Source of the DNA: Methanotrichaceae archaeon
GTDB taxonomy: Archaea > Halobacteriota > Methanosarcinia > Methanotrichales > Methanotrichaceae
Length of the DNA stretch: 64,000 nucleotides
Direction: 5' to 3'
Assembly (NCBI GenBank): GCA_963748825.1
Contig: CAVVKN010000012.1
Span: 95,536 to 159,535, forward strand
Numbering within the stretch: position 1 is the first letter of the stretch; each line of letters opens with the position of its first letter. A program made the position numbers and the translations under genes. Under the pieces are notes generated by a model. It saw only the letters and a program-made list of their open reading frames with translations. It made no database searches and had not been told where the DNA came from. Below, piece by piece: positions 13,055 to 32,828 of this stretch.

Positions 13055-13199
13055 AACTTGTTCTTCATGGAAATGGCCATTGTACGTGGCCGACCAGGCG
13101 TTCCCGGTCGTACCTGTGGAGTTTCAATCCTTGTTTTCATGGAACTCGCCCTCGGACTCTGGTTCATCCTGGGCAATGCCCTTGCAGCCTTGGGGTTTC

Positions 13200-14664
13200 C
13201 CATGGAAAACCACACGAAACCAAAATCAGGAGGCGATCTATTCACCACCCCCAGATGGCCTTTTCTGGCCGACCTTGATCTCAGAAATGTCTGCGATCTC
13301 ACGCATGAGAGCATTCTTCCGGCTGCTCTCTTTCAGGTGATAAAAGGCATCCACAATTGCAGCGACCCGATCCGTTAAATGCTCTTCCTGAAATGAAGGT
13401 GCATGGCAGGGCTTATCCTGACTCGATCCCCTCTTTCTGCATTCACCTTCCAGATACAACTCCTGGTTGATCAGAAGATGATAAATGAGACAGATGAGTT
13501 TCCTGGCCACGGCAACAATCGCAACATTACGCTCCTTCTTTTTTATCAATCTCTGGAAGAATCTGGACAGCGCCGTCTTTTTCATATTTGATATGGTCTG
13601 CGCTGCTTGGACAAGTATAACTCTGATGTGCTTGGAACCCCTCTTTGTAATTCCACATTTTTTCTTCTTGCCTGCAGATTCGTTTTCTCCGGGATTGAGG
13701 CCACACCATTTTGCGAGCTGGTCCGGAGTCTTAAAATCACGGTAGTTCCCAATCTCCGACAGTATGACCGATGCAGATGTGAATCCAATTCCAGGGATCG
13801 ACATGACTATGGCCAGATCTTTGCTCTTTTGCTGAACTCCTTTCAGAACCTCAAGGCTTAGCTTCTCCATTTTGGATTCGAGATTGTCAAGGATTTCCAG
13901 AGCATCTATTAAGAGCATTCTGCTTGTATCGTTAAGACCATTTTCAAGTGCTGATCTAATCAGGTCTTGCTTCTTCCTTATCTTTCCGGAGGGTATGCCT
14001 TTCAAGATCTCTTCGATGGGCTTATTTTTAGCAAGACAGTTCAGGATGTATCTGCCGGACTTGCAGAAAATATCGTCCATGGTAGAACTGAGCTTAACCC
14101 CGCTTGATGATAGATATTTATGAATCCGATTCCTGAACTGAGTTCGTGTCTTGACATATCCGGACCTGGCTCGGGTCATCATCCTAAGGTCTCGGTCCTC
14201 ATCGGTAAATACGCGAGATCTTTTGATTTGACCGTTCAAGCAAAGGGTTGCGATTCGGTTTGAGTCTTTAGAGTCGGATTTGTCATTTGGAACGGTCTTT
14301 ATCTGCAACGGATTGGCTACAATTGTATCTATGGTTTTGCTCAGAGCATCATAAATCGGCATCCAATAGACACCAGTAGCTTCAAATGCCACTTGTTCGC
14401 ATTTGTTGGCAACCAGCCAGTTGCGGAATCTCTTAAGCTCGGCTTTTGTTGTCCCAAAATTCTCTCGAATTGTCGGTACATCATCGCCTGTTATTGTGGC
14501 AACGATCAGATCTTTATGGACATCTGCTCCGCAAACTCTATCTCTTCGTTTGTTCATACACGTCTCTGCCTGATATGGGCAGATGATCTTTCCCTGAGAT
14601 GGGATAATTTCCCATACGCGTTCCACGACGCAGTCCCGTATTCGGGGGGATCTTGGCCTGTTTC
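13200..14664 (-). mobile_element. IS110-family element copy 1; non-coding end truncated at internal GTTTC and fused to copy 2
   Basis: Starts CCATGGAAAACCAC right after spacer-GTTTC (13195-13199); matches copy 2 up to ggcctGTTTC (14660-14664) and lacks the last 130 bp. Confidence 0.93.
13238..14557 (-). CDS. IS110-family transposase/recombinase, 439 aa
   Basis: RuvC-like DEDD: GADVHKD, AFEATG, KSDSKDS; Tnp20 domain SIPGIG, GLNPGENESAG, AIVAVARKL; start at MNKRRD. Confidence 0.95.
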   Translation of the reverse strand: MNKRRDRVCGADVHKDLIVATITGDDVPTIRENFGTTKAELKRFRNWLVANKCEQVAFEATGVYWMPIYDALSKTIDTIVANPLQIKTVPNDKSDSKDSNRIATLCLNGQIKRSRVFTDEDRDLRMMTRARSGYVKTRTQFRNRIHKYLSSSGVKLSSTMDDIFCKSGRYILNCLAKNKPIEEILKGIPSGKIRKKQDLIRSALENGLNDTSRMLLIDALEILDNLESKMEKLSLEVLKGVQQKSKDLAIVMSIPGIGFTSASVILSEIGNYRDFKTPDQLAKWCGLNPGENESAGKKKKCGITKRGSKHIRVILVQAAQTISNMKKTALSRFFQRLIKKKERNVAIVAVARKLICLIYHLLINQELYLEGECRKRGSSQDKPCHAPSFQEEHLTDRVAAIVDAFYHLKESSRKNALMREIADISEIKVGQKRPSGGGE

Positions 14665-14702
14665 CCATGGAAAACCACACGAAACCAAAATCAGGAGGCG
14701 AT

Positions 14703-16022
14703 CTATTCACCACCCCCAGATGGCCTTTTCTGGCCGACCTTGATCTCAGAAATGTCTGCGATCTCACGCATGAGAGCATTCTTCCGGCTGCTCTCTTTCA
14801 GGTGATAAAAGGCATCCACAATTGCAGCGACCCGATCCGTTAAATGCTCTTCCTGAAATGAAGGTGCATGGCAGGGCTTATCCTGACTCGATCCCCTCTT
14901 TCTGCATTCACCTTCCAGATACAACTCCTGGTTGATCAGAAGATGATAAATGAGACAGATGAGTTTCCTGGCCACGGCAACAATCGCAACATTACGCTCC
15001 TTCTTTTTTATCAATCTCTGGAAGAATCTGGACAGCGCCGTCTTTTTCATATTTGATATGGTCTGCGCTGCTTGGACAAGTATAACTCTGATGTGCTTGG
15101 AACCCCTCTTTGTAATTCCACATTTTTTCTTCTTGCCTGCAGATTCGTTTTCTCCGGGATTGAGGCCACACCATTTTGCGAGCTGGTCCGGAGTCTTAAA
15201 ATCACGGTAGTTCCCAATCTCCGACAGTATGACCGATGCAGATGTGAATCCAATTCCAGGGATCGACATGACTATGGCCAGATCTTTGCTCTTTTGCTGA
15301 ACTCCTTTCAGAACCTCAAGGCTTAGCTTCTCCATTTTGGATTCGAGATTGTCAAGGATTTCCAGAGCATCTATTAAGAGCATTCTGCTTGTATCGTTAA
15401 GACCATTTTCAAGTGCTGATCTAATCAGGTCTTGCTTCTTCCTTATCTTTCCGGAGGGTATGCCTTTCAAGATCTCTTCGATGGGCTTATTTTTAGCAAG
15501 ACAGTTCAGGATGTATCTGCCGGACTTGCAGAAAATATCGTCCATGGTAGAACTGAGCTTAACCCCGCTTGATGATAGATATTTATGAATCCGATTCCTG
15601 AACTGAGTTCGTGTCTTGACATATCCGGACCTGGCTCGGGTCATCATCCTAAGGTCTCGGTCCTCATCGGTAAATACGCGAGATCTTTTGATTTGACCGT
15701 TCAAGCAAAGGGTTGCGATTCGGTTTGAGTCTTTAGAGTCGGATTTGTCATTTGGAACGGTCTTTATCTGCAACGGATTGGCTACAATTGTATCTATGGT
15801 TTTGCTCAGAGCATCATAAATCGGCATCCAATAGACACCAGTAGCTTCAAATGCCACTTGTTCGCATTTGTTGGCAACCAGCCAGTTGCGGAATCTCTTA
15901 AGCTCGGCTTTTGTTGTCCCAAAATTCTCTCGAATTGTCGGTACATCATCGCCTGTTATTGTGGCAACGATCAGATCTTTATGGACATCTGCTCCGCAAA
16001 CTCTATCTCTTCGTTTGTTCAT
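14703..16022 (-). CDS. IS110-family transposase/recombinase, 439 aa
   Basis: Same protein as copy 1 (LKRFRNW allele). Confidence 0.95.
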   Translation of the reverse strand: MNKRRDRVCGADVHKDLIVATITGDDVPTIRENFGTTKAELKRFRNWLVANKCEQVAFEATGVYWMPIYDALSKTIDTIVANPLQIKTVPNDKSDSKDSNRIATLCLNGQIKRSRVFTDEDRDLRMMTRARSGYVKTRTQFRNRIHKYLSSSGVKLSSTMDDIFCKSGRYILNCLAKNKPIEEILKGIPSGKIRKKQDLIRSALENGLNDTSRMLLIDALEILDNLESKMEKLSLEVLKGVQQKSKDLAIVMSIPGIGFTSASVILSEIGNYRDFKTPDQLAKWCGLNPGENESAGKKKKCGITKRGSKHIRVILVQAAQTISNMKKTALSRFFQRLIKKKERNVAIVAVARKLICLIYHLLINQELYLEGECRKRGSSQDKPCHAPSFQEEHLTDRVAAIVDAFYHLKESSRKNALMREIADISEIKVGQKRPSGGGE

Positions 16023-16254
16023 ACACGTCTCTGCCTGATATGGGCAGATGATCTTTCCCTGAGATGGGATAATTTCCCATACGCGTTCCACGACGCAGTC
16101 CCGTATTCGGGGGGATCTTGGCCTGTTTCAATCGCGGGATCAAACGTCCTATAAACTTGTCGGCCTTCACTGCCCATATCCGGCTTAACGTGAACGGATA
16201 ACAATATGTGGTTTTCCATCCGTCACGTGTGAGCCCCTGCCTGGGCTCATGGGC
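16023..16254 (-). ncRNA. Putative bridge RNA in the IS110 non-coding end (copy 2)
   Basis: Hairpins at 16230-16249 and 16188-16228; 11-bp stem 16170-16180/16037-16047 enclosing GATTGAAAC (repeat match, 16125-16133) and ATGGGAAA (donor match, 16073-16080); RNA boundaries unknown. Confidence 0.72.
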
Positions 16255-16961
16255 GTTTCAATCCTTGTTTTTGTGGAACTCGCCCTCGGACCTATATTAT
16301 AGTAATGACTACTATAAGTAAAAATCCGATGTTTCAATCCTTGTTTTTGTGGAACTCGCCCTCGGACCCATCTATGCCCAGGAATATATTCGATGTCTTT
16401 GAGTTTCAATCCTTGTTTTTGTGGAACTCGCCCTCGGACATTCCCACCTTCGAAATAGACCGAGCGTTTGAGATTGCGTTTCAATCCTTGTTTTTGTGGA
16501 ACTCGCCCTCGGACCGACATAATCACCAAGACCGCCCCAATTGACGGCCTGTTTCAATCCTTGTTTTTGTGGAACTCGCCCTCGGACATTGATTACTTGT
16601 TTCATGTTCATTACCTCCCTGCTAGTTTCAATCCTTGTTTTTGTGGAACTCGCCCTCGGACTCCAAGCGATTGCCTCTGGAGAAGTTAGATCGAATTGTT
16701 TCAATCCTTGTTTTTGTGGAACTCGCCCTCGGACCGCAACAGGTGACGACCTTTCCAGCAAAGTTGAAGCTGGTTTCAATCCTTGTTTTTGTGGAACTCG
16801 CCCTCGGACTGGGACACGGCGCTGGTTCTGATGCCGATCTCGTATAGTTTCAATCCTTGTTTTTGTGGAACTCGCCCTCGGACTATAATTTTGGATTCGT
16901 CATTCATGCATCCTCACGGTTTCCCATGGAAAACCACACGAAACCAAAATCAGGAGGCGAT

Positions 16962-18281
16962 CTATTCACCACCCCCAGATGGCCTTTTCTGGCCGACCTT
17001 GATCTCAGAAATGTCTGCGATCTCACGCATGAGAGCATTCTTCCGGCTGCTCTCTTTCAGGTGATAAAAGGCATCCACAATTGCAGCGACCCGATCCGTT
17101 AAATGCTCTTCCTGAAATGAAGGTGCATGGCAGGGCTTATCCTGACTCGATCCCCTCTTTCTGCATTCACCTTCCAGATACAACTCCTGGTTGATCAGAA
17201 GATGATAAATGAGACAGATGAGTTTCCTGGCCACGGCAACAATCGCAACATTACGCTCCTTCTTTTTTATCAATCTCTGGAAGAATCTGGACAGCGCCGT
17301 CTTTTTCATATTTGATATGGTCTGCGCTGCTTGGACAAGTATAACTCTGATGTGCTTGGAACCCCTCTTTGTAATTCCACATTTTTTCTTCTTGCCTGCA
17401 GATTCGTTTTCTCCGGGATTGAGGCCACACCATTTTGCGAGCTGGTCCGGAGTCTTAAAATCACGGTAGTTCCCAATCTCCGACAGTATGACCGATGCAG
17501 ATGTGAATCCAATTCCAGGGATCGACATGACTATGGCCAGATCTTTGCTCTTTTGCTGAACTCCTTTCAGAACCTCAAGGCTTAGCTTCTCCATTTTGGA
17601 TTCGAGATTGTCAAGGATTTCCAGAGCATCTATTAAGAGCATTCTGCTTGTATCGTTAAGACCATTTTCAAGTGCTGATCTAATCAGGTCTTGCTTCTTC
17701 CTTATCTTTCCGGAGGGTATGCCTTTCAAGATCTCTTCGATGGGCTTATTTTTAGCAAGACAGTTCAGGATGTATCTGCCGGACTTGCAGAAAATATCGT
17801 CCATGGTAGAACTGAGCTTAACCCCGCTTGATGATAGATATTTATGAATCCGATTCCTGAACTGAGTTCGTGTCTTGACATATCCGGACCTGGCTCGGGT
17901 CATCATCCTAAGGTCTCGGTCCTCATCGGTAAATACGCGAGATCTTTTGATTTGACCGTTCAAGCAAAGGGTTGCGATTCGGTTTGAGTCTTTAGAGTCG
18001 GATTTGTCATTTGGAACGGTCTTTATCTGCAACGGATTGGCTACAATTGTATCTATGGTTTTGCTCAGAGCATCATAAATCGGCATCCAATAGACACCAG
18101 TAGCTTCAAATGCCACTTGTTCGCATTTGTTGGCAACCAGCCAGTTGAGGAATCTCTTAAGCTCGGCTTTTGTTGTCCCAAAATTCTCTCGAATTGTCGG
18201 TACATCATCGCCTGTTATTGTGGCAACGATCAGATCTTTATGGACATCTGCTCCGCAAACTCTATCTCTTCGTTTGTTCAT
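16962..18281 (-). CDS. IS110-family transposase/recombinase, 439 aa
   Basis: As copies 1/2 except R>L substitution (LKRFLNW). Confidence 0.95.
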   Translation of the reverse strand: MNKRRDRVCGADVHKDLIVATITGDDVPTIRENFGTTKAELKRFLNWLVANKCEQVAFEATGVYWMPIYDALSKTIDTIVANPLQIKTVPNDKSDSKDSNRIATLCLNGQIKRSRVFTDEDRDLRMMTRARSGYVKTRTQFRNRIHKYLSSSGVKLSSTMDDIFCKSGRYILNCLAKNKPIEEILKGIPSGKIRKKQDLIRSALENGLNDTSRMLLIDALEILDNLESKMEKLSLEVLKGVQQKSKDLAIVMSIPGIGFTSASVILSEIGNYRDFKTPDQLAKWCGLNPGENESAGKKKKCGITKRGSKHIRVILVQAAQTISNMKKTALSRFFQRLIKKKERNVAIVAVARKLICLIYHLLINQELYLEGECRKRGSSQDKPCHAPSFQEEHLTDRVAAIVDAFYHLKESSRKNALMREIADISEIKVGQKRPSGGGE

Positions 18282-18513
18282 ACACGTCTCTGCCTGATAT
18301 GGGCAGATGATCTTTCCCTGAGATGGGATAATTTCCCATACGCGTTCCACGACGCAGTCCCGTATTCGGGGGGATCTTGGCCTGTTTCAATCGCGGGATC
18401 AAACGTCCTATAAACTTGTCGGCCTTCACTGCCCATATCCGGCTTAACGTGAACGGATAACAATATGTGGTTTTCCATCCGTCACGTGTGAGCCCCTGCC
18501 TGGGCTCATGGGC
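18282..18513 (-). ncRNA. Putative bridge RNA (copy 3)
   Basis: Same sequence as 16023-16254. Confidence 0.7.
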
Positions 18514-18702
18514 GTTTCAATCCTTGTTTTTGTGGAACTCGCCCTCGGACCACTGCCATCAAGTTCTAATGGGACCAATTCAATTTTGTTTCAATCCTTG
18601 TTTTTGTGGAACTCGCCCTCGGACATATTAGGTGATTTTCATGAAACTATGTATTATATGTTTCCCATGGAAAACCACACGAAACCAAAATCAGGAGGCG
18701 AT

Positions 18703-20022
18703 CTATTCACCACCCCCAGATGGCCTTTTCTGGCCGACCTTGATCTCAGAAATGTCTGCGATCTCACGCATGAGAGCATTCTTCCGGCTGCTCTCTTTCA
18801 GGTGATAAAAGGCATCCACAATTGCAGCGACCCGATCCGTTAAATGCTCTTCCTGAAATGAAGGTGCATGGCAGGGCTTATCCTGACTCGATCCCCTCTT
18901 TCTGCATTCACCTTCCAGATACAACTCCTGGTTGATCAGAAGATGATAAATGAGACAGATGAGTTTCCTGGCCACGGCAACAATCGCAACATTACGCTCC
19001 TTCTTTTTTATCAATCTCTGGAAGAATCTGGACAGCGCCGTCTTTTTCATATTTGATATGGTCTGCGCTGCTTGGACAAGTATAACTCTGATGTGCTTGG
19101 AACCCCTCTTTGTAATTCCACATTTTTTCTTCTTGCCTGCAGATTCGTTTTCTCCGGGATTGAGGCCACACCATTTTGCGAGCTGGTCCGGAGTCTTAAA
19201 ATCACGGTAGTTCCCAATCTCCGACAGTATGACCGATGCAGATGTGAATCCAATTCCAGGGATCGACATGACTATGGCCAGATCTTTGCTCTTTTGCTGA
19301 ACTCCTTTCAGAACCTCAAGGCTTAGCTTCTCCATTTTGGATTCGAGATTGTCAAGGATTTCCAGAGCATCTATTAAGAGCATTCTGCTTGTATCGTTAA
19401 GACCATTTTCAAGTGCTGATCTAATCAGGTCTTGCTTCTTCCTTATCTTTCCGGAGGGTATGCCTTTCAAGATCTCTTCGATGGGCTTATTTTTAGCAAG
19501 ACAGTTCAGGATGTATCTGCCGGACTTGCAGAAAATATCGTCCATGGTAGAACTGAGCTTAACCCCGCTTGATGATAGATATTTATGAATCCGATTCCTG
19601 AACTGAGTTCGTGTCTTGACATATCCGGACCTGGCTCGGGTCATCATCCTAAGGTCTCGGTCCTCATCGGTAAATACGCGAGATCTTTTGATTTGACCGT
19701 TCAAGCAAAGGGTTGCGATTCGGTTTGAGTCTTTAGAGTCGGATTTGTCATTTGGAACGGTCTTTATCTGCAACGGATTGGCTACAATTGTATCTATGGT
19801 TTTGCTCAGAGCATCATAAATCGGCATCCAATAGACACCAGTAGCTTCAAATGCCACTTGTTCGCATTTGTTGGCAACCAGCCAGTTGAGGAATCTCTTA
19901 AGCTCGGCTTTTGTTGTCCCAAAATTCTCTCGAATTGTCGGTACATCATCGCCTGTTATTGTGGCAACGATCAGATCTTTATGGACATCTGCTCCGCAAA
20001 CTCTATCTCTTCGTTTGTTCAT
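18703..20022 (-). CDS. IS110-family transposase/recombinase, 439 aa
   Basis: Same protein as copy 3 (LKRFLNW allele). Confidence 0.95.
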   Translation of the reverse strand: MNKRRDRVCGADVHKDLIVATITGDDVPTIRENFGTTKAELKRFLNWLVANKCEQVAFEATGVYWMPIYDALSKTIDTIVANPLQIKTVPNDKSDSKDSNRIATLCLNGQIKRSRVFTDEDRDLRMMTRARSGYVKTRTQFRNRIHKYLSSSGVKLSSTMDDIFCKSGRYILNCLAKNKPIEEILKGIPSGKIRKKQDLIRSALENGLNDTSRMLLIDALEILDNLESKMEKLSLEVLKGVQQKSKDLAIVMSIPGIGFTSASVILSEIGNYRDFKTPDQLAKWCGLNPGENESAGKKKKCGITKRGSKHIRVILVQAAQTISNMKKTALSRFFQRLIKKKERNVAIVAVARKLICLIYHLLINQELYLEGECRKRGSSQDKPCHAPSFQEEHLTDRVAAIVDAFYHLKESSRKNALMREIADISEIKVGQKRPSGGGE

Positions 20023-20254
20023 ACACGTCTCTGCCTGATATGGGCAGATGATCTTTCCCTGAGATGGGATAATTTCCCATACGCGTTCCACGACGCAGTC
20101 CCGTATTCGGGGGGATCTTGGCCTGTTTCAATCGCGGGATCAAACGTCCTATAAACTTGTCGGCCTTCACTGCCCATATCCGGCTTAACGTGAACGGATA
20201 ACAATATGTGGTTTTCCATCCGTCACGTGTGAGCCCCTGCCTGGGCTCATGGGC
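20023..20254 (-). ncRNA. Putative bridge RNA (copy 4)
   Basis: Same sequence as 16023-16254. Confidence 0.7.
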
Positions 20255-23200
20255 GTTTCAATCCTTGTTTTTGTGGAACTCGCCCTCGGACTTCTTATCC
20301 ATCCAAGAAGCTGCCCGCCAAGGCTCTGTTTCAATCCTTGTTTTTGTGGAACTCGCCCTCGGACAATCGCATAATGGCGGAAAACGCGGCAATCCTGGGT
20401 TTCAATCCTTGTTTTTGTGGAACTCGCCCTCGGACTCCTCAGTGCATTGCATCAGCTTCCAAGCCTTTCCAGTTTCAATCCTTGTTTTTGTGGAACTCGC
20501 CCTCGGACCCGCGATGCTAGCCAAGCTCTCTGATATGATTATCTGGGTTTCAATCCTTGTTTTTGTGGAACTCGCCCTCGGACTTTTGGACTAACTGCTC
20601 CGATAAATCTCCTATAGAAGTTTCAATCCTTGTTTTTGTGGAACTCGCCCTCGGACGGCGGGAAAGTCGGCTGCCGGCATGGGCGATTTTGATGTTTCAA
20701 TCCTTGTTTTTGTGGAACTCGCCCTCGGACCGGAGTAAGAGATTCGCGGTTATCAAATCCCAAACAGTTTCAATCCTTGTTTTTGTGGAACTCGCCCTCG
20801 GACTTGGGGTTGGTCATGGGGAATGCAGCTCTTGGGGGAGTTTCAATCCTTGTTTTTGTGGAACTCGCCCTCGGACAAGATAGATGAGGTTTGAGCATGA
20901 GAGGCACACTGCGTTTCAATCCTTGTTTTTGTGGAACTCGCCCTCGGACTGCGGTCTCAAACGCCAGGCCGAGCCTGGTTGATGTGTTTCAATCCTTGTT
21001 TTTGTGGAACTCGCCCTCGGACAACAAGAAGTAGCCGATGCAGTCAAAGTATATGCGGGTTTCAATCCTTGTTTTTGTGGAACTCGCCCTCGGACCCAAC
21101 CAGATTAGACCATTGGTGTCCATAATTTGCAGTTTCAATCCTTGTTTTTGTGGAACTCGCCCTCGGACATCTAGATGATGCAGATTACCAGAGCCGGATT
21201 TAACCAGTTTCAATCCTTGTTTTTGTGGAACTCGCCCTCGGACCTGTTTTGCAAGCCCGAAGATGGCGGCGCGGATGGAGTGGTTTCAATCCTTGTTTTT
21301 GTGGAACTCGCCCTCGGACGTACTTTTCTGTCCTGAAGATCGTGCGCATGCGATAGTTTCAATCCTTGTTTTTGTGGAACTCGCCCTCGGACCACAATTA
21401 TCCAGAACGGTGTCTCCTTCGTTGGTAGTTTCAATCCTTGTTTTTGTGGAACTCGCCCTCGGACAAAGATATGATGCTCAGATCAAAGACCTATTACATA
21501 GTTTCAATCCTTGTTTTTGTGGAACTCGCCCTCGGACTTGTCATATCTTCCAAGCATATTCCAACGTTCTTGATGTTTCAATCCTTGTTTTTGTGGAACT
21601 CGCCCTCGGACTACGAGCGGCACCGTTGGAGATACCTTCTATATATGTTTCAATCCTTGTTTTTGTGGAACTCGCCCTCGGACAGCAAAAAGGACTTGCA
21701 ACAAGCGGAACTATTAGAGTTTCAATCCTTGTTTTTGTGGAACTCGCCCTCGGACACTCCCGCAATCGCTTCACAAATTCCGGCCATTCTCAGAGTTTCA
21801 ATCCTTGTTTTTGTGGAACTCGCCCTCGGACTGTAGATGCTCAGATGGCATGATCTCATAGGTTGTGACAGTTTCAATCCTTGTTTTTGTGGAACTCGCC
21901 CTCGGACGCTGGAGCCTCGTATTGGCATCACACGAACTCATCGTTTCAATCCTTGTTTTTGTGGAACTCGCCCTCGGACTATCCGCAGTGCCATTTATGG
22001 CAGTCTCGTATCAGGGTTTCAATCCTTGTTTTTGTGGAACTCGCCCTCGGACTTCATGCCGAACCGCTATAGCCCATGAACATCCTAAGTTTCAATCCTT
22101 GTTTTTGTGGAACTCGCCCTCGGACAAGGAATCTTCCCGTGCATTCGCAGTGATTAGGATGTTTCAATCCTTGTTTTTGTGGAACTCGCCCTCGGACTGC
22201 GAACTGGTCAGAAGAAAGAAGAACATCGTTTGTGTTTCAATCCTTGTTTTTGTGGAACTCGCCCTCGGACGTTACTCTTACGGCATCCAGTCCCGGTATT
22301 TGGGGGTTTCAATCCTTGTTTTTGTGGAACTCGCCCTCGGACGGTCGAAACATCGGGGCTCCAAGATTGCAGAAGATGTTTCAATCCTTGTTTTTGTGGA
22401 ACTCGCCCTCGGACATTATATCGCAGCTTGATCCCTCAGCTAGAAGTAATGGTTTCAATCCTTGTTTTTGTGGAACTCGCCCTCGGACTAGCTATCTGGA
22501 TGAATTGAATCAGTACGTATCTGAGTTTCAATCCTTGTTTTTGTGGAACTCGCCCTCGGACACTCAGCACACACCCACACAGACGACGGGATAGATCGTT
22601 TCAATCCTTGTTTTTGTGGAACTCGCCCTCGGACACATAACCCTATTACCCGTGATCGGTTATAGTTGGCGTTTCAATCCTTGTTTTTGTGGAACTCGCC
22701 CTCGGACGCAATTTACCTCTCGCGTCCATCTTAGCATGGAACGGTTTCAATCCTTGTTTTTGTGGAACTCGCCCTCGGACGCTGATTGCGGCGCGTGGTT
22801 CATGATTAGGTGATCAGTTTCAATCCTTGTTTTTGTGGAACTCGCCCTCGGACTGTCATGCCATAGCATCTATGATCTGTCATCGAGTCAGGTTTCAATC
22901 CTTGTTTTTGTGGAACTCGCCCTCGGACGCTGGCATGAGTTCTCGATGGCATGGGGGTAGGTAAGTTTCAATCCTTGTTTTTGTGGAACTCGCCCTCGGA
23001 CCTATCAGAAGGGGCCGGGTGGTTGGGGATACTGGCAGTTTCAATCCTTGTTTTTGTGGAACTCGCCCTCGGACTCTGTTTTCAGATATGCCTTATTGGT
23101 ACATTCGTTAGTTTCAATCCTTGTTTTTGTGGAACTCGCCCTCGGACGTGAGACACAGTCGATGCAACTGTATCTTGAGACAAACTGTTTCAATCCTTGT

Positions 23201-23370
23201 TTTTGTGGAACTCGCCCTCGGACCTTGGAATAAGCAGAGATCGAACGATTGATGGAGGAAGTTTCAATCCTTGTTTTTGTGGAACTCGCCCTCGGACAGC
23301 ATTTGCGGAAAAGACAGGCAACAGAAATATCTGGTTTCAATCCTTGTTTTTGTGGAACTCGCCCTCGGAC

Positions 23371-23529
23371 AGCGGCTTTTTTTCGTCCTTTTCCCCGTTT
23401 CTCAGTGTCAAACCGGCCTTTTCTCACCCTCCTCAAAGCATTAGAGGAATTTATTAGATGGCTTATAAATTCATTCCGGCAGGTGGGCCCGAAAATAGGC
23501 TCGCTGGCCCAAAAACGGATGGCGCATCT
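23371..23529 (-). promoter_or_regulatory. CRISPR leader
   Basis: Non-coding region between the cas6 stop and the first repeat; A/G-rich on the minus strand with TATA-like ATTTATAA at ~23463-23470. Confidence 0.75.
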
Positions 23530-24186
23530 CTATTTCAGTTTTGTAACCGCCCCGTAACCTCTGGAGACTGACTTGCCCAGCCCCAGGAAGTCCGGGATGG
23601 CAAAGGTTGTGGTGAACTCTCCTCGTATCCCCGTGACTTTTGTCCCCTTCAGCAGGCAGATCTCATCCTGCATCCCGCCCACCTCCAGCCGAATGTGCTC
23701 TTTGGCCACGTAGCCCAGCCCCTTGGAGGCGGAGAGGATGTTGCCCACCAGGATTCTTCTCAGCAGATCCTTTCTTTCCTCTCTGTTTGCATTTAAATAT
23801 TTGGGGTAGTTGTCCTGGCTAAGTGCCAGCCAGGGCGTGGCAAAACTGTAGCTTTGGATCTTTTCGCAGCATCCGAACTCCTCGCTCTTCAGGGTAATGC
23901 CGCGCTCCATGATGCTGTACTTGCTCTCTCCCAATTTTATCTCATCGAATTTATCATAGATCTCTTTCAGGACCTCTGCCCCCTCGTTGATGCCAAGGAC
24001 CAGGGGACTTCCCTCCAGCATCTTGTACTGGATGAGAGGATATTTGTAGATCAGCTTGTCCGTCACATGCTGGTGCAGCAGCGCATGCTCATTGAAGCTG
24101 GTGGCAAAGAAGCCGCGCAGCTTCGATGCGTCCCCGTGCATGGGCGCGTCCGAGTGCAGGGTGAGGCGGAGGATTTTGAGGATCAT
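23530..24186 (-). CDS. cas6: CRISPR endoribonuclease Cas6 (Cas6b-like)
   Basis: KLRGFF...LLHQH...YKYPLIQYK and C-terminal G-rich loop GLGKSVSRGYG. Confidence 0.92.
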   Translation of the reverse strand: MILKILRLTLHSDAPMHGDASKLRGFFATSFNEHALLHQHVTDKLIYKYPLIQYKMLEGSPLVLGINEGAEVLKEIYDKFDEIKLGESKYSIMERGITLKSEEFGCCEKIQSYSFATPWLALSQDNYPKYLNANREERKDLLRRILVGNILSASKGLGYVAKEHIRLEVGGMQDEICLLKGTKVTGIRGEFTTTFAIPDFLGLGKSVSRGYGAVTKLK

Positions 24187-24188
24187 GG

Positions 24189-24416
24189 CTATCCTTTCTT
24201 ATCGAAGAACTCTTCACGACTAATCCCCGCCTCTTTTAGAATCTCATTCAACAACCCTTTGGGAACATCATAACCATGAAATGGAACCACCGTTGACTTT
24301 TTGGTTTCAGGGTTGTGGTAAAAATGATGGCTGCCGCTGATTCTCTCCAGCTCAAAACCGCATTTCTCAAGTATTCTAGCCAGCTTTTCCGGCGGGATGC
24401 AGGGTAGTTTAGCCAT
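24189..24416 (-). CDS. hicA: HicA-family toxin (mRNA interferase)
   Basis: LEKCGFELERISGSHHFY...TVVPFH...KGLLNEILKEAG. Confidence 0.9.
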   Translation of the reverse strand: MAKLPCIPPEKLARILEKCGFELERISGSHHFYHNPETKKSTVVPFHGYDVPKGLLNEILKEAGISREEFFDKKG

Positions 24417-24451
24417 GCCACTCAGGAACATGCTTCAAGTTGCTTAAAAAT

Positions 24452-24691
24452 TTAAGCATTTGCCTCGACTGCAATCGTGCATATCATCGAATCATCGGAT
24501 TCTATGGGCACTTCTTCGCCGCGGGCGATCATGCAGGCAATAAAGCCCTCAATTGCCTCTTTTGCCATTGCCAGCGCCTCTTCAACCGTTCGCCCGAAGG
24601 TCAGGCAACCCGGCAGTGAAGGCACAATCACCGTATAAGTTCCGTCTTCCTCTTTTCGGAGCATAATTTTATAGCGTAATGTCTTCATCAT
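24452..24691 (-). CDS. hicB: HicB-family antitoxin
   Basis: EEDGTYTVIVPSLPGCLTFGRTVEEALAMAKEAIE. Confidence 0.9.
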   Translation of the reverse strand: MMKTLRYKIMLRKEEDGTYTVIVPSLPGCLTFGRTVEEALAMAKEAIEGFIACMIARGEEVPIESDDSMICTIAVEANA

Positions 24692-24822
24692 AGTGGTCTC
24701 CTATCCTATATTGATATTTGATGCTGTCTTTGATCTTGCGGCTTTGCGGGCTCCCGCGCATGGACGCGTGCGAGGCGGGGTGAAGCGGAGATTTTTTGGG
24801 AAACATACCGCAAGCTCCCAAC

Positions 24823-27258
24823 TTAAATGATCATGGAGCCCCCTCCGGCTCCCGCTCGCATGAAGCCCGTTTCCAAATCGTAGTAGTTGGGCAGCTCATC
24901 TCTTGAAATATAACCCATATCGGAATCTTCAGCGACCAGGTTATGAGCGTATTTCTCCGGTGCGGAGATCACATACTCGCTGAAATCCTTCTTTATCTTG
25001 AGATACTTTTTCGTCCTCTCCAGATGATTCTTTTCAGACTGCATATCCAGGTATTGTTTCCAAATCCCTGCAGCGTTATCGTCCAACTCGACAAAGACAT
25101 TCACTTTGGGATAGTCCTCTTCGATGAGCTTGAAGTTCTTGTTCAGATCCTTAAACGCTAATCCGGCAATGCAGTCCAGGTTATCCTTCGACTCTTTCTC
25201 GCCCATGCCTCTCTTCACGGCTTTGAAATATTTGTTATTAAGGTCCAGGAATTCTGATTCTTTAATTGGCCCTTTGATCTGCTTCAAAATGTCCAGCGTC
25301 TTGCTTATCAAGAATGGATCGTAAATATATTTATAAAATTCTTTTCGATCATCTTTCAAAATGAAAATCGATACTATGCCCTTTTCGTCTTTGGCGGAGT
25401 GTCTATTGCATCTGCCCGCTACCTGGTTGATCGAGTCTAGTGGTGCAAAGTCCCTGTAAACGATATCTGCATCAATATCTACGCCAGCTTCTATGAGCTG
25501 AGTGCTGACAATGACCTTTCTTTTTCTCGGTGATTCTTTGGATTCTCTTATCTCATTTATCCGCGTCAACCTCTCCTTTGGGATTACATTTGTGGAGAGG
25601 AAAAATCTCTTTGTATTCTCCAGTTCCAATCCTTGAACGAATTTATAAATCTCTTGAGCCGAGCCTATCGTGTTTAGAACGATCAAGAAATCTTTCTCTT
25701 TCTTCTGGAGCAAGTCCTCATTAAGCAAGGCTTTGAATTCATCTAGGGTCAGTGCTCTCTCAATTCTTGGTATGAGCTCAATTCTATTCAAGCCCCGGAA
25801 GTATTCCTCTTTCCTTTGTGCTATCTCCTTGATCTCTCCTTTTGCTTCATCGAAGATGAGCGGCTGGGTCGCAGTGATGAAGACAACGTAAGTGTTGAAC
25901 TTCTCGCAAAGCAGCTTCAATGAATCGTGTATCAGCAGCCAGTAATGGTGAGGCACAGCCTGGACCTCATCCAGAATGATTATGGAGTTAGCAAGCTTGT
26001 TGAATTTGCGAAGCTGTTTATTCCTGTTGGAAAAGAGTGTGTTAAAGAGCTGCCAGAATGTGGTTACAATTATCTCTGCATTCCAGCCTTCCAGGAGCAG
26101 CAGGCTTTTATCGACTTCGTACTCTTTCTCCTCGGTCTTGTACTTCACATCCGAAAGATGGTGATGTTTGAGAAGTAGCCGGGAATCTTTGGTGTCTCCT
26201 CCCACAACATCATCAAAGACCTTGTAGTTTTGATCGATTATGCTCAGAAAAGGCAAAGCGTAGATTATTCTGGGCTTGATTTTTCGCTCATTCTCCAATC
26301 GCTCTCTCAGTTTCAGGGAAAGGGAAAGAGCGGTGAGCGTCTTGCCCGTGCCTGTGGGAACATTCAGGGAGAGGATCTTATCGTCCAGGTTCCAATTTTT
26401 GATTCTTTCCACAGCCTCTTCATATATCTGATTCCTGAGGCCATTGATATTGTCCTGATTGGATGAAAAGCCCTTTGCATCCCTATAGTCATCCACCAGC
26501 TTTGATGAAAGGCCCAGCCGGTCCAATTTGATTCCATCTAGTCCTGCATCAGTCTTGTCAGCATCTAAGAGTGCAGAGTAAATAAACTGAGATAAAAAAT
26601 ACGGGTAAAGATCGCTTTTTTCACTCAAGTCCCTAATGAAACGCTTCTCCTTTCTGCCAATATCTTTTGTCGCATCTTTTAAAATATAATCAATAATATT
26701 ATCCACGTCGAGTTTTAAGCTCATATTCTCTTTAGACAGAAGCAGTGCCAGTATTTCTCTGATCTCTGCCATGTCAATGGTGTTTATTTGTTCTACCGCC
26801 ACCCTCAGAATTTTGTCCTTGTCGGCATCGATTTCCTTAATTTCATCCATTGCATTTGGTAGATTTCCGTGATGCCTCTTCACTGCCAGGAAAGACAAGA
26901 TGGGCAAGTATTCAGCCAAACTACCTCTTCGCCCTGTCTGACTTAAGTATTCCTTTATCACTGCATACGTAAAGAAAGCCGAGAGCAGGCCGTGATGAGT
27001 GTTGTCCTTGGCTTTGAGAGACTTCTTTTTATTCTCATCGGTCTCAATAATGTAATCCTGGAAAAATTTCGTAGCTTTTCCCAGGTCGTGCGTCACACCC
27101 ATGAGGTAAGCAGCGTCTGTCAAGAGATCCTTGTCATCTATGTTTAGAGATTTGTCTGTAACAGTTTTCCTGCTCAATTGCCCTACTCTGCTCAAGTGAT
27201 CCACCAGGCGTTTATCCGGGTGAGACTTGAGCTTAAAGGAATACGATTCGCTCGCCAT
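24823..27258 (-). CDS. cas3: Cas3 HD nuclease-helicase
   Basis: HDLGKA HD motif, VPTGTGKT, ILDEVQ, STQLIEAGVDID, QVAGRCNR. Confidence 0.96.
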   Translation of the reverse strand: MASESYSFKLKSHPDKRLVDHLSRVGQLSRKTVTDKSLNIDDKDLLTDAAYLMGVTHDLGKATKFFQDYIIETDENKKKSLKAKDNTHHGLLSAFFTYAVIKEYLSQTGRRGSLAEYLPILSFLAVKRHHGNLPNAMDEIKEIDADKDKILRVAVEQINTIDMAEIREILALLLSKENMSLKLDVDNIIDYILKDATKDIGRKEKRFIRDLSEKSDLYPYFLSQFIYSALLDADKTDAGLDGIKLDRLGLSSKLVDDYRDAKGFSSNQDNINGLRNQIYEEAVERIKNWNLDDKILSLNVPTGTGKTLTALSLSLKLRERLENERKIKPRIIYALPFLSIIDQNYKVFDDVVGGDTKDSRLLLKHHHLSDVKYKTEEKEYEVDKSLLLLEGWNAEIIVTTFWQLFNTLFSNRNKQLRKFNKLANSIIILDEVQAVPHHYWLLIHDSLKLLCEKFNTYVVFITATQPLIFDEAKGEIKEIAQRKEEYFRGLNRIELIPRIERALTLDEFKALLNEDLLQKKEKDFLIVLNTIGSAQEIYKFVQGLELENTKRFFLSTNVIPKERLTRINEIRESKESPRKRKVIVSTQLIEAGVDIDADIVYRDFAPLDSINQVAGRCNRHSAKDEKGIVSIFILKDDRKEFYKYIYDPFLISKTLDILKQIKGPIKESEFLDLNNKYFKAVKRGMGEKESKDNLDCIAGLAFKDLNKNFKLIEEDYPKVNVFVELDDNAAGIWKQYLDMQSEKNHLERTKKYLKIKKDFSEYVISAPEKYAHNLVAEDSDMGYISRDELPNYYDLETGFMRAGAGGGSMII

Positions 27259-27937
27259 TCCCGACCTCCCAAAGCTCTTTTACCTTCGCTTTGATTTTCT
27301 TTCCGTTCCTTTCAAACAGAATCTCGCGGTAGTCGGTTACCTCTCTTGCTTCTCCCATCTCGCCTGGCATCACTTCTGAGAAGTATTCCTTTCCTTCCTC
27401 GAAATCCGGCTCAAGAAGGCAATTACCCGGCACCACGCTATCTATATCCTGGACATCTTCTCCTGAACTCTTCAGACCAAACTCTCCTATGAACTTGAAG
27501 TTGCAGATGAGCTCGCTTAGTCCAAGACACGGAGTGTATACAGACTGATGGCTGGTGAGCAAGTCTTTCAGCTTTTTATATAATTGCTCATCGGAGTGAG
27601 AGAAATAAATTCTGTACTTCGGATCTTTGACGAACTCGAATCTGATCTGGGTTCTGTTCTTGATCAGATGCATCTTAATTGCGCTCTTGGTATCAATCAG
27701 GTTCTCTCCAATCCTCACTTTTTTTACAGGCGCCAGGATTTTGCAGCCGATTTTGGCATCAACCTTAAAGAAGTGCCTGAAATACTCCGTTTTGTCCAGA
27801 CCGACGATGGCCCCGATCAGCCCTGAGAGAGCAGTTCGGGGCGGGAAAGAATAGGTGAGTGGAGAGCTGGTAGAGTAATTCTTCCTGAAGTGGGCGTAGT
27901 CCCCCCACACATCGAATACTATTACTCTCTCCGGCAT
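27233..27937 (-). CDS. cas5: Type I-B Cas5
   Basis: VFDVWGDYAHFRK...TYSFPPRTALSGLIGAIVG; YTPCLGLSE. Confidence 0.93.
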   Translation of the reverse strand: MPERVIVFDVWGDYAHFRKNYSTSSPLTYSFPPRTALSGLIGAIVGLDKTEYFRHFFKVDAKIGCKILAPVKKVRIGENLIDTKSAIKMHLIKNRTQIRFEFVKDPKYRIYFSHSDEQLYKKLKDLLTSHQSVYTPCLGLSELICNFKFIGEFGLKSSGEDVQDIDSVVPGNCLLEPDFEEGKEYFSEVMPGEMGEAREVTDYREILFERNGKKIKAKVKELWEVGNGERIVFL

Positions 27938-27944
27938 CTGGACC

Positions 27945-28865
27945 TCAGAACGCAATTGGCTTTATGGCTATGCCGGTAGCTGCTGCCAATCCTTCAATTG
28001 GGAAACCGGCCCCTTCTTTGCAGAACTTAATCCTGCCGTCCACGCAAATCTCAATATCCTTGATTGAGCCCTTTTCCGCAGCAAGTTTCTTGACCAACTC
28101 TGATATCTCAAGCTGGTAATCTACGGTGTCACGAATGTTCTCATGAGGCATCTCGGTTACCAGCTTTAGCATCTTATCTAGATCCCCAATATGATAGTTC
28201 TCTTTGCTGTAATTCACTTTGAGGAGCAACCTTGGAACCTGTCCTGCTTTGGATCTGGAAATCAGGCTCTTGGTTCCATTCCAAATGCCTTCTAGCAAGA
28301 GCTTTAAATCATCCTCGGTAAGATGAGTGTGTTTGGCAGCGTTCTCGTTTACGATGCCATAAAAGGAGATAAGCGAATAGGGCAGAAAGTCCTCTTCTCT
28401 AAACGTTGCCTGCTTAGAACCCTCCTTAGAGGCAAAGGCTCCGGTTCCCTTAATATGCATCATAGTAACACGATGGAGCGAACGGCCCATCTTAAACTGC
28501 ACTGGACCGGTATAGATTATCGAGTCCTCTTTTAAAGGTATTACTCCACCGAAGAGACGAATATCGATGCACTCGCCCAAAATTTTCTCGGCATCATTAC
28601 CAAAGTTGCCTGCTCTCATCTTTCCATCTTGGATAAGACCTTTCTCTTGGTCGTAGACTACTTCCCTTACAAAGATCTCAAGGCCTTTGAAATTGTGAAG
28701 GTAGTCCCGGATGGTCCTTTTCAATCTGACATCTGTTACGAGGTTGATGCCGGTCTCTTCATCAATCCGAGGCTTGTTCTCGTCCATTGGATCTCCGTTA
28801 GGATTTCCGTCTCTAATGTCGTAGATAAAGAGAATTTCTGATCTGTTCTTAACTTCCTCGTTCAT
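27945..28865 (-). CDS. cas7: Type I-B Cas7 (Csh2)
   Basis: NPNGDPMDENKPRID, VTDVRLKRTIRDY, DIRLFG, TGPVQF. Confidence 0.94.
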   Translation of the reverse strand: MNEEVKNRSEILFIYDIRDGNPNGDPMDENKPRIDEETGINLVTDVRLKRTIRDYLHNFKGLEIFVREVVYDQEKGLIQDGKMRAGNFGNDAEKILGECIDIRLFGGVIPLKEDSIIYTGPVQFKMGRSLHRVTMMHIKGTGAFASKEGSKQATFREEDFLPYSLISFYGIVNENAAKHTHLTEDDLKLLLEGIWNGTKSLISRSKAGQVPRLLLKVNYSKENYHIGDLDKMLKLVTEMPHENIRDTVDYQLEISELVKKLAAEKGSIKDIEICVDGRIKFCKEGAGFPIEGLAAATGIAIKPIAF

Positions 28866-28867
28866 TT

Positions 28868-30739
28868 TTATGCCCCCTCTCCAATTTGCTCGTCAGTCTC
28901 TTTTGTATTCTTAAACAGTTTTTGCATGTCCATTCCTAAAACAAAGTAGAAGCTTAGCTCATCATCTGCTTCTTTCCAATTGACTCCAGCTAAAACAAAA
29001 TAATGCGCAATGATGGATTCCAAATCACGGTAGTAATTTTTCCCATATTCCTCCAGCTTGTTCTGAATTTCTGGTAGGAGCCTCTTGATTAGTGCTTCAT
29101 TCATTTTTAGGCCATGCAACTTGGCCCGGAATGGCGTCGCTTTTTTGTCATTCCACTGTATATTGAGCAGATTTTGAGTGAGAACTCCTTCCAAGAATGT
29201 CGCTTTCTTGGCATCGCTCGTAAAAAACGACTTATTAGCCTCAAAAAACCTCTCAACTTTTTGTTCCAGCGGAAGACCTTCGAGATTTTCGATAGATTGC
29301 ATTCCACTTCCCTTTTCATCCATTTCTTTCAGCTCCTCCTTAGAATCTCTGAAAAGATTAAGCTCTTTTAGATAGTGCAATAGCAGGAAGCCATTCAACG
29401 TGGCAATATTTGTAGGATAGCCTTCGATGAAAGCTTCTCTTGCTTTTCTTATTATAAAATCCATTAGCAAATAATAATCAATTCGGTTTCCAACAAAAAT
29501 CTTATTGACCATCTCCAAGAAAATTTTATCAAACGTTCTATTCTTGGACTCTTGCGGGAAGAATCTCCTCAAGACACCGAAATTGAATTCGAGGTGGTTC
29601 TTCTCTTTCTGCGATTCATTCAAGAGCTGATCGTTATATGCCTCGAATCTCTCGTCCACTTTGTCCTTGATATCGAAAAGGGCTTTCAATCGAGATGGCA
29701 GAATTCCCTCGATGAGAAGCAAGATTCTGTATGATGATTGTTCCTTTTTATAAAATATCAGGCTGTTGCTGATAAAGTCTTTTTTATCCTTGACGAGGTC
29801 CAGAATCTCTTCTTCATCTGAAGTTATATTGCTCTTGATTTCTCTGTTTATTTTCAGCTTCCTTTTCTGATCCTTTCCGCCCAAGATGCTCAGAATGTCT
29901 TGAAAATCGCAACCTAACGCTAGCTTTGGCACGAGCAAATACCTGAAGCCGTAGAAGCCAAAGTCAAGCCTTTCCTCTACGTATTTCTTGCCTAACTCCA
30001 GGCTTGTGGCGCAGTTAAAGCATACGGGTGTATTCTTCCAGGACTCAGAGACATCAAATCCTCCGGCAATGAAGCCGGGCTTATCAAATGTATGGAAAGC
30101 CCAGGGAATTGCAAAGCCATAGACTTCCTCTTTTTTCTGCCTGCAAACAGAACAAAATGCGTCTCTTCCCAGAGATGTCCCCTGAGACTTCTTGGTGGAA
30201 TACTTATCACTTCCCGTTCGAAGCAAGATGCTCTTGAAAACCGGATGATCGCTAAGATATGAAATGCCTTCTTCTTTTTCAATTGCAAGGGTAATTATGG
30301 CGTTATACTTTGAATCCTTCCCAGAGTATTTCTCATTCAATTCTGCAACAATTCTGTCTTTTTGGCCCTTGATTGCTATACTCATTTTTTTAAGGTTATC
30401 TTTTTCTTCATCTGATATGTCATAGCTATCATAGTTTTCAAACCATTTTATAAACCTGTTCTTGAATGTCTTTTCGACTTGGCCAGCTACTTTGCTGGTT
30501 GGTGTTGCATCGGTGCCGTTTGGAGCACCTTTTTTATATAAATATAAAGCAGGTTCTTTGAATTCATCTAGAACAACTCGACTAAAAGAATAATCACCAT
30601 TTATCTCGCTCAAAATTACTAATAAAGCATATTTATACTTTCCATTACTATTTGGATTCTCAATAAAGGTTGATAACAGGTCATTTCCACCTTTATTTTT
30701 TTGCACATAATCTCCAATTCTGCTTACCGCCTCAATCAC
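28868..30739 (-). CDS. cas8b: Type I-B large subunit Cas8b (Csh1/TM1802-like)
   Basis: 623 aa; CSVC...TFDKPGF...PVCFNC zinc site; helical C-terminus ending FYFVLGM; lies before cas7. Confidence 0.88.
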   Translation of the reverse strand: MIEAVSRIGDYVQKNKGGNDLLSTFIENPNSNGKYKYALLVILSEINGDYSFSRVVLDEFKEPALYLYKKGAPNGTDATPTSKVAGQVEKTFKNRFIKWFENYDSYDISDEEKDNLKKMSIAIKGQKDRIVAELNEKYSGKDSKYNAIITLAIEKEEGISYLSDHPVFKSILLRTGSDKYSTKKSQGTSLGRDAFCSVCRQKKEEVYGFAIPWAFHTFDKPGFIAGGFDVSESWKNTPVCFNCATSLELGKKYVEERLDFGFYGFRYLLVPKLALGCDFQDILSILGGKDQKRKLKINREIKSNITSDEEEILDLVKDKKDFISNSLIFYKKEQSSYRILLLIEGILPSRLKALFDIKDKVDERFEAYNDQLLNESQKEKNHLEFNFGVLRRFFPQESKNRTFDKIFLEMVNKIFVGNRIDYYLLMDFIIRKAREAFIEGYPTNIATLNGFLLLHYLKELNLFRDSKEELKEMDEKGSGMQSIENLEGLPLEQKVERFFEANKSFFTSDAKKATFLEGVLTQNLLNIQWNDKKATPFRAKLHGLKMNEALIKRLLPEIQNKLEEYGKNYYRDLESIIAHYFVLAGVNWKEADDELSFYFVLGMDMQKLFKNTKETDEQIGEGA

Positions 30740-30755
30740 CCAAAATCACCATCAA

Positions 30756-31409: not shown

Positions 31410-31654
31410 TTTGCCCTCAGAACACCTTGGTTAACATCATGCCCGCCACCAGTTCTCGGTCGAATCCCGTTCCGATCAGCTTGATCTTATCAAAGCAGTC
31501 CTCGCACATGGGAAAGACGTAGACTGAATCAGACTCCTCGATGACCGCCTCGCACTCCAGGGCCAGGGAGTCGGACTGATTCCGGTTCAGATCGCCCAGA
31601 AAGGCGCTCTTCTGCACCCGGAACAGGCCGTATCTCTTACAGAGCTTCGCTACC
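31265..31654 (-). repeat. Diverged ~390-bp direct repeat, copy A (cas2 3' part + cas4 5' part)
   Basis: Aligns with 32350-32739 at offset 1085 with scattered substitutions. Confidence 0.9.
31417..31654 (-). pseudogene. cas2: 5'-truncated cas2 duplicate
   Basis: [18 protein letters not shown]...MLTKVF but lacks the N-terminal VIYDIS strand. Confidence 0.85.
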
Positions 31655-31725
31655 TTAAGTCTTGCATATGCAAAATTATGGAGCGAGAAGATCTCTCTCA
31701 GCAATCTTTCCGAAAAATATTACTA

Positions 31726-31884: not shown

Positions 31885-31956
31885 TTAATCTCCTGGTCAT
31901 GCATCTGCTTTCTATCTATATAATCCTTTAGACAAATGGATTTTTGTAGAATATAA

Positions 31957-32349: not shown

Positions 32350-32801
<452 letters not shown>

Positions 32802-32828
32802 TTATTATTCTTTTCCAGTTGTTAGTTA

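Follow-up and report, generated by a model that had tools for sequence, protein, structure and literature searches.

Four copies of an IS110-family insertion sequence (IS) occupy a CRISPR array of a Methanotrichaceae archaeon. The account of their insertion that we hold with good confidence, reading it from sequence, is that an RNA guide encoded in the element's own left end directs it to a short motif, which the CRISPR repeat happens to carry at its end. The array lies in a 64,000-nucleotide stretch of contig CAVVKN010000012.1 (assembly GCA_963748825.1, positions 95,536 to 159,535), which we analyzed over its full length and call the window. Among the observations behind the account are these: a predicted guide segment of the element is identical to the end of the repeat, the corresponding segments of relatives change together with their insertion sites, and the element has twice entered the DNA that encodes its own guide. 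The target is a short motif for which CRISPR arrays are the largest reservoir, not the sole home.

Four element copies at the ends of CRISPR repeats

The array (13121..23370, CRISPR RNA [crRNA] sense on the minus strand) consists of 55 repeats of 37 nucleotides (nt), of which 54 are exact and the one at 13121 has two mismatches; when the plus strand of the window was searched with the repeat, none of 100 shuffles gave any match. Compared with Rfam, the repeat resembles CRISPR-DR7 on the minus strand, scoring 36 bits, one below the gathering score of 37 (E 5e-5). We read the array from right to left because of this minus-strand match, the minus-strand cas genes and leader-like gap on its right side, and the degenerate trailer repeats that mark its left end, among them one further degenerate repeat at ~13039-13075. 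In the crRNA sense the repeat therefore ends in ...GGATTGAAAC.

A search of the genome with the 1595-bp element recovered four copies on the window contig, three full and one of 1465 bp, and none besides these four within the 64-kb window. All lie on the minus strand, in one orientation, within the trailer-side quarter of the array. Our reference is copy C (16924..18518; 1595 bp, with one copy of the flanking 5-base word counted). Copy D (18665..20259; transposase open reading frame [ORF] 18703-20022) is identical to it and sits at the end of the repeat at 20255-20291, and copy B (14665..16259; ORF 14703-16022) sits at the end of the repeat at 16255-16291. Copy A (13200..14664) comprises element positions 131-1595; the first 130 nt of its left end, including the target-binding guide, are gone, and its transposase ORF (13238-14557) is intact. 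A single base separates the copies, position 1225 being C in A and B and A in C and D, which changes residue 46 from L to R. An earlier note on this DNA had described four near-identical copies in the array; the number and the near-identity stand, but one copy is truncated and lies head-to-tail with a full one. The same note had reported identical, co-oriented junctions at three array sites, and we recover them as given: spacer-GTTTC|CCATGG...CATGGGC-GTTTC|AATCC at 13195/16255, 16919/18514, and 18660/20255. Its statement that the 64 kb hold no intact copy elsewhere is likewise correct.

Further copies exist on other contigs of the genome, outside any array: contig C5 carries a 93% copy and C23 a fragment of 317 bp, each at a site with a one-base variant of the target motif. 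A stretch of ~70 nt, with differences, adjoins both the C5 copy (~29880-29990) and the C23 fragment (~222440-222520) and may be the end of another repeated element.

A predicted guide in the left end matches the repeat end

Copy C has a long non-coding left end of 237 nt (18282-18518) and a short right end of 38 nt (16924-16961). Our alignment of left ends, A1, sets the window element beside eight relatives that share its specificity (82-95% identical) and six distant relatives (~70%). The consensus fold is closed by a 13-bp stem and contains a hairpin whose internal loop is large, as well as two small hairpins. In this fold 96.9% of cells are paired, compared with 20-44% when the partners are slid, five pairs show compensatory double changes, and none of 500 shuffles reached its covariation score.

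The hairpin with the internal loop is the predicted target-binding hairpin (18379..18424 in copy C, minus strand; outer stem, internal loop, inner stem), in which the helices at 99-102/141-144 and 115-117/125-127 of A1 hold one compensatory pair each. The 3' side of its loop reads GCGAUUGAAAC in the window element, and the final nine letters of this segment are the final nine of the CRISPR repeat. They constitute the putative left-target guide (18384..18392, minus strand; RNA GAUUGAAAC), whose DNA form is also the internal pseudo-target at the junction of copies A and B considered below. Throughout the window family, the left-guide columns 128-140 of A1 equal the left flank, (G)ATTGAAAC. Other relatives carry their own left flank at this place, over 8 nt in L042, 9 in L031, 8 in L033, 11 in L008, 8 in L038, 6 in L035, and 7 of 8 in L029; read by eye, guide and flank agree in the window specificity and in five others.

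The 5' side of the same loop holds the putative right-target guide (18412..18419, minus strand; RNA ACAAGUUU), of which GUUU pairs with the AAAC of the repeat end. Arrays offer this guide that four-base pairing only; its extension would pair with TTG(T) past AAAC, which is matched only at the non-array sites L005 and L051. Among relatives, the 5' loop side matches the right flank in reverse complement, over 9 nt in L008, 8 in L042, 6 in L035, 5 in L031, and 3 in L033, and by eye it is complementary to the flank in four of five distant relatives. A third segment is a candidate left-donor guide (18332..18339, minus strand; RNA AUGGGAAA) that equals the element's right end plus the core. It reads ATGGGAA in most relatives, ATGTGAA in L033, and ATGCGAA in L008, and the right end shifts in step.

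That the element is an RNA-guided member of IS110, as the earlier note had it, is thus supported at the level of sequence by three left-end segments: in relatives of other specificity, these change in step with the flanks and with the element end. Co-variation of this kind is how bridge RNAs were discovered, and the left non-coding end is where Durrant et al. placed the bridge RNA of IS110-group elements (PMC11208160).

A predicted AA core inside the repeat end

GAAAC flanks the copies, and variant junctions narrow the point of exchange within it. Base 1 of the left junction follows the target (C in L005, A in L006), as does base 5 of the right junction, which is T in L009, L055, L070, and L085, A in L077 and L086, and G in L096. 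The junctions of L061 share GAA only, and the match of the donor guide stops after GAA in L033 and L008. Taken together, these junctions and the end of the donor guide at GAA place the predicted recombination core at the AA dinucleotide, two bases inside the repeat end. The earlier note had marked the exchange by the junction word GTTTC; a 5-base word does flank the copies, but exchange would occur in the AA inside it, not across the whole of GTTTC. Given an AA core, the left target is ...(G)ATTG, the right target AC, and the right donor ACGCCC..., and all nine specified target bases fall within the repeat.

By analogy with IS621, insertion would proceed from a donor junction (right end, G-AA-AC, left end), circular or tandem, that recombines with the target at AA. 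The loop segment (G)AUUG-AA-AC would correspond to the left half of the target plus the core, and the third segment, AUGGGAA, to the element's own right end. The AC derived from the element would restore the upstream repeat intact, the downstream spacer would lose its repeat and keep only G-AA-AC in front, and the element would always come to lie in the crRNA direction. We infer that the guide acts as RNA, as we do the order of these events and read-through transcription from the leader. Because the guide needs only ~7-9 bases, all of them in the repeat end, any repeat ending in ATTGAAAC would be a target, as would the motif elsewhere, guide-encoding DNA included; arrays, being the densest store of the motif, would collect about half of the family's copies. 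We looked for a stem-loop at the target by folding 21 reconstructed empty sites, which gave z from -3.2 to +2.0 and no structure that was consistent across the 13 non-array sites.

Insertion into the guide template and the donor junction

The first array site contains full copy B head-to-tail with truncated copy A, the two meeting at 14664/14665. Copy A starts right after the internal GATTGAAAC, the guide template, in the non-coding end of the resident copy, and its upstream junction consists of right end, GAAAC, and AGGCC.... On its sequence, the A/B junction is what an insertion into the guide template gives as its right-hand product. A left-hand part, 130 nt of the resident left end, would be expected too, but the site lacks it; this part would have made a perfect 130-bp tandem duplication with the incoming copy, one readily lost or collapsed. 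The complementary arrangement occurs at the metagenome locus L070, where left-end nt 1-131 are followed by a full copy. Guide-encoding DNA has thus served as a target twice, and from the sequence of these two sites we conclude that self-insertion is real and that recognition does not require a CRISPR context.

The earlier note had also predicted a junction of right end, GAAAC, and left end, and this junction is present in a metagenome contig. L071 (3197 nt, ~two unit lengths) contains nothing but the element, from position 1 through right end-GAAAC-left end, and its repeated part (within 1-2256) is identical at 659/659 bases. The contig fits a circular form or a tandem dimer, which would be alike in sequence.

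A derivative of ~86 bp joins ~40 nt of the left end to ~12 nt of the right end and is found with the same 5-base word at ATTGAAAC-like sites (L032, ~1501-1590; L047 in G008). Short matches to this left-end stretch are numerous in G008, G016, G007, and other genomes, and the derivative is probably a non-autonomous element mobilized in trans. By eye, the left flank of L080 resembles the coding start of an L033-like IS110 element; this locus may be one family member inserted in another.

The motif and its sites in related genomes and metagenomes

In named records, close loci belong to Methanothrix or to Methanotrichaceae metagenome-assembled genomes; these share the genus of the window genome, which is apparently Methanothrix. 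The window-type junction recurs in at least six other genomes and in 21 metagenome loci. Tabulating the flanks of homologs, as the earlier note had proposed, bore out a shared target: all copies and close homologs with a readable left flank sit at ATTGAAAC or at a variant that departs from it by one or two bases. Among relatives of 82-95% identity, 23-24 of ~44 distinct sites in genomes and metagenome contigs lie in CRISPR repeats. At least three repeat families are targeted, with little in common beyond the terminal ATTGAAAC.

Twelve of the genome sites are in CRISPR repeats: three in the window, L011, two in L048 (G020), two in L049 (G005), L054, L057, L058, and L026, with repeat periodicity confirmed for all except L026. 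Counted by genome, they comprise the three window sites, L011, two in G020, two in G005, three in G009, and one in G016. An equal number lie elsewhere (L005, L006, L009, L010, L012, L013, L014, L050, L051, L052, L055, and L056); L016 and L053, which are without a left end, were excluded from the site count. From the metagenomes we examined 30 of 45 loci (L060-L086, L096, L097, and L102), leaving out 15 relatives at 24-37% identity, and 21 of the 30 had a left flank of at least 32 nt. Twelve of these 21 are in repeats that recur every 71-80 bp, at 11 distinct sites (L078 and L079 share one), and seven are elsewhere, at six distinct sites (L082 and L086 share one). The flank of L065 is identical to a verified repeat at 34/36 positions without visible periodicity, and L070 is nested in the left-end guide template of another copy.

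The window genome itself contains ATTGAAAC 138 times, 55 of them in repeats, five inside IS copies, and 78 elsewhere, so that 55 of 133 free sites are in the array; for the longer GATTGAAAC, which occurs 81 times, 55 are in repeats (55 of 76 free sites). The guide, then, suits the end of the repeat, and most sites that suit it are in arrays; an affinity for arrays beyond this is unsupported by the counts. The earlier note had proposed the conserved repeat end as the programmed target. The guide is indeed the repeat's last nine bases, but what it addresses is a motif of 7-9 bases, and ~40% of the family's copies lie outside arrays.

Within arrays, copies cluster at the trailer end. They occupy repeats 2, 11, and 13 of 56 in the window, 3 and 12 of 16 in G020, and 2 and 11 of 22 in G005, and in L011, whose array has at least 17 repeats, the copy is in the last one. 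This clustering may stem from the age of old repeats or from selection that acts on insertions near the leader and removes them. Paired array copies stand exactly nine repeats apart in three genomes, in the window (14665-18518), L048 of G020 (5016-8864), and L049 of G005 (5769-9618), with start-to-start distances of 2259, 2254, and 2256 bp and unrelated spacers. In G009, nine repeats come after a copy before the contig ends.

The cas genes beside the window, G020, and G005 arrays are homologous at 82-91%, and we considered shared ancestry of the array copies in the three genomes. We rejected it, since the spacers are unrelated and the nine-repeat block gives matches at the level of the repeats only (68-80%); for the same reasons, the insertions were not inherited together with spacers. 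No empty-site comparator was found for the array insertions of the window, G020, and G005. In the G005 array (L049), three consecutive spacers occur twice in the crRNA sense, at 4946-5131 and 7422-7607; one occurrence is three units ahead of one IS copy, and the second immediately precedes the other copy. We take this duplication as a sign of rearrangement between the copies.

Weighing the alternatives

Several points weigh against the guide-based account. The co-variation of guides, flanks, and right ends was scored by eye, and co-variation of guide and flank alone cannot separate an RNA guide from direct DNA-DNA recognition. The 3-nt right-guide match of L033 lends no support to a right-target guide, the left guide of L035 has a mismatch, and the long target guide occupies the 3' side of its loop, where PMC11208160 describes the 5' side for IS621. 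Scanning A1 by eye for the complement of the left terminus revealed no right-donor guide; the candidates had 4-5-base matches only, without co-variation, and were rejected. An Rfam scan of the element at E up to 10 left the left end unmatched and returned CRISPR-DR on the repeats and chance snoRNA only. Specificity is low, at 7-9 bases, and 18 of the ~44 distinct sites are outside arrays. Finally, all three recent insertions of the window genome are in the array, an outcome with a probability of 0.07 when sites are counted by the 8-mer and 0.38 by the 9-mer. Neither value is significant, and we accordingly discarded an array preference beyond motif count. Recognition by the protein, or by direct homology between left end and target DNA, would draw on some of the same facts: the matching segments are present in DNA as in any transcript, and the left end has no Rfam counterpart. 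We nevertheless find this very improbable, because the recombinase belongs to a family in which RNA guidance has been shown experimentally (PMC11208160), the matching segments lie in loops of a conserved, co-varying fold, and two of them address opposite strands, as in IS621. It is hardly credible, too, that the multiple copies are an assembly artifact or arose by duplication within the array instead of by separate insertions. The source is a 25-contig draft genome, its copies are 100% identical or one base apart, and the G005 array has a duplicated three-spacer block beside its copies; against this, different spacers flank each window copy, the A/B and C/D pairs differ by one base, and the junction recurs in independent genomes and the 21 metagenome loci.

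A further possibility is that the element is a specialized parasite of CRISPR, its guide selected for the crRNA handle, with leader read-through, perhaps followed by a Cas6b cut 8 nt upstream of the left end, supplying bridge RNA and transposase mRNA, and with the recombinase remodeling arrays. Array copies all co-oriented with crRNA transcription, a minimal target wholly within the repeat, restoration of the upstream repeat, the targeting of at least three unrelated repeat families, clustering at the trailer end, and nine-repeat pair spacing in three genomes with unrelated spacers all speak for it. An asymmetric target, however, gives co-orientation automatically; ~40% of copies are outside arrays, some at better guide matches (L005 and L051, which include the right-guide extension); and array enrichment in the window genome stays within the motif count. 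We judge such specialization unlikely. We are more doubtful still of a version in which the guide is fixed on the near-universal 8-base crRNA handle, the element lives mainly in arrays, in different species and repeat families, its guide and recombinase are both expressed through leader transcription and possibly through processing by Cas6b 8 nt upstream of the left end, and deletions and duplications made by the recombinase reshape arrays; trailer clustering and nine-repeat spacing would follow from those deletions and duplications. Our preferred reading remains RNA-guided insertion directed by the motif.

The recombinase and the type I-B locus

The transposase of copy C (16962..18281, minus strand; 439 aa from a conserved ATG) contains a DEDD RuvC-like domain and, C-terminal to it, an IS110-type Tnp domain, matched by PF01548 at residues 10-151 (E 1.1e-22) and by PF02371 at residues 251-332 (E 5.5e-26). 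Sequence matches in the PDB are the IS621 and ISCro4 transposases only (IS621 8wt6, E 1.8e-8). Aligned with IS621, the motifs GADVHK, FEATG, and DKSDSKDS of the element face the IS621 acidic motifs, whose residues are presumably the catalytic ones in this recombinase; the Tnp region aligns with IS621 residues 197-312 and places ES opposite the IS621 ES, the serine of which we take to be the nucleophile. The long left and short right non-coding ends and the absence of a target duplication beyond the shared core are those of the IS110 group. In the IS1111 group the guide RNA is in a long right end, downstream of the transposase, whereas here the right end has 38 nt and the co-varying segments are all in the left end. 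It is thus highly probable, as far as sequence can tell, that the element is an IS110-group insertion sequence with a DEDD/Tnp recombinase and a bridge-RNA-like guide in its left end. By eye, left-end nt ~39-52 of copy C (18467-18480) are complementary to the right-terminal 14 nt (16924-16937) at all but two positions. Inverted repeats in a subterminal place of this sort are seen more typically in the IS1111 group, and both parts of this one are kept in the miniature derivative.

A 159-nt gap with an A/T-rich box separates the first repeat from cas6b and is a putative leader, as inferred from its sequence (23371..23529, minus strand). Beyond it lie the cas genes of a type I-B system (23530..33977), all on the minus strand and assigned by NCBIfam and Pfam (Cas6b_N/C and Cas1 among the latter): cas6b (23530-24186), cas3 (24823-27258), cas5b (27233-27955), cas7 (27945-28865), cas8b (28868-30739), cas4 (30756-31409), and cas1 (32934-33977). 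The array together with cas6b, cas8b, cas7, cas5, cas3, cas4, and cas1 identifies the locus as type I-B; the search covered these genes. Two small ORFs between cas3 and cas6b (~24200-24690, minus strand) have, by eye, the look of a HicB/HicA-type antitoxin-toxin pair.

Discussion

CRISPR-associated transposons (CASTs) combine transposons and CRISPR through RNA guidance, borrowing Cas proteins and crRNA for target choice. In the element described here the relationship would be reversed, for it would use an RNA of its own and take the array itself as target.

The closest characterized relative in mechanism is IS621 of E. coli (PMC11208160). Like it, our element has a DEDD and Tnp recombinase, a long structured left end, a 2-base core, and a 4-base right-target pairing; its predicted loop segments match left target plus core, core plus right target, and left donor; and a dispersed genomic repeat serves as target. 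The two differ in that protein similarity is weak (E 1.8e-8, C-terminal domain only), the predicted core is AA where that of IS621 is CT, and the left pairing is shorter, at ~5 + 2 bases. The long guide of the element is on the 3' side of the loop, its donor guide lies in a multi-branch region, and our scan yielded no right-donor guide. Its host is an archaeon, and its target is the end of a CRISPR repeat instead of a repetitive extragenic palindromic (REP) sequence. Dispersed repeats are a habit of the family, with REP as target of IS621 and ISPpu10 and attC of some IS1111 members, and the element resembles these REP- and attC-targeting IS110/IS1111 elements in pairing putative RNA guidance with a structured, multi-copy repeat as target (10.64898/2026.03.19.712850; PMC11208160). 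ISPpu10 is reported to need a stem-loop beside its target (10.64898/2026.03.19.712850), whereas the reconstructed empty non-array sites here are without a consistent fold and the pseudo-target in the guide template works without repeat context.

The earlier note knew of no characterized example of an IS110 element directed at CRISPR repeats. For RNA guidance this agrees with the literature we searched on bridge RNA, seekRNA, TIGR-Tas, Nop5 origin, and a noncoding atlas, in which we found no bridge or seek RNA directed at CRISPR repeats, although the supplementary target tables of PMC11208160 and PMC11187229 could hold cases. CRISPR repeats as a guide target likewise go unmentioned in the excerpts of PMC10883916, PMC3936711, PMC12045711, PMC11187229, 10.64898/2026.10.21.760802, 10.1101/2025.10.25.684509, and 10.1101/2024.06.21.599552. 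Descriptive precedents, on the other hand, do exist (PMC4852346; PMC6352166). In Thermoanaerobacter, one array was reported in 2016 to contain three single IS110 copies with the same flanks together with a dimer of IS110 and a miniature element, a picture that matches the window array; the account, as excerpted, is descriptive, precedes bridge RNA, and gives no guide, target word, or orientation rule (PMC4852346). The Thermus elements IS1000A/B, of the IS110 family, were found in 2019 to have 32 bp in common with CRISPR repeats, which the authors read as sequence recruited for CRISPR, not as targeting; array insertions are unanalyzed in the excerpt (PMC6352166). The identity between a catalogued end of this element and the CRISPR repeat suggests that the catalogued Thermus copy sat in a CRISPR repeat. 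IS110 copies in CRISPR arrays have therefore been described before, but a mechanism is offered in neither of these two papers.

The guide-based account of repeat targeting would provide a mechanistic reason for an old, scattered observation, the pile-up of IS110 elements in CRISPR arrays, through a guide written against the conserved repeat end. The element would also be a compact archaeal system of the bridge type, with an AA core and an unusual loop arrangement. Its natural set of at least five related specificities allows three guide segments to be compared directly with their targets, which should help in deriving guide rules. A target as short as 7-9 bases, and insertion into the element's own guide template, would illustrate the cost of low stringency. 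The interest of the case rests on its target class, its archaeal host, the natural series of specificities, and the biology of the array, where one RNA-guided system would be the landing pad of another: each insertion is expected to silence one spacer and split the array, and may place the element under the control of the leader.

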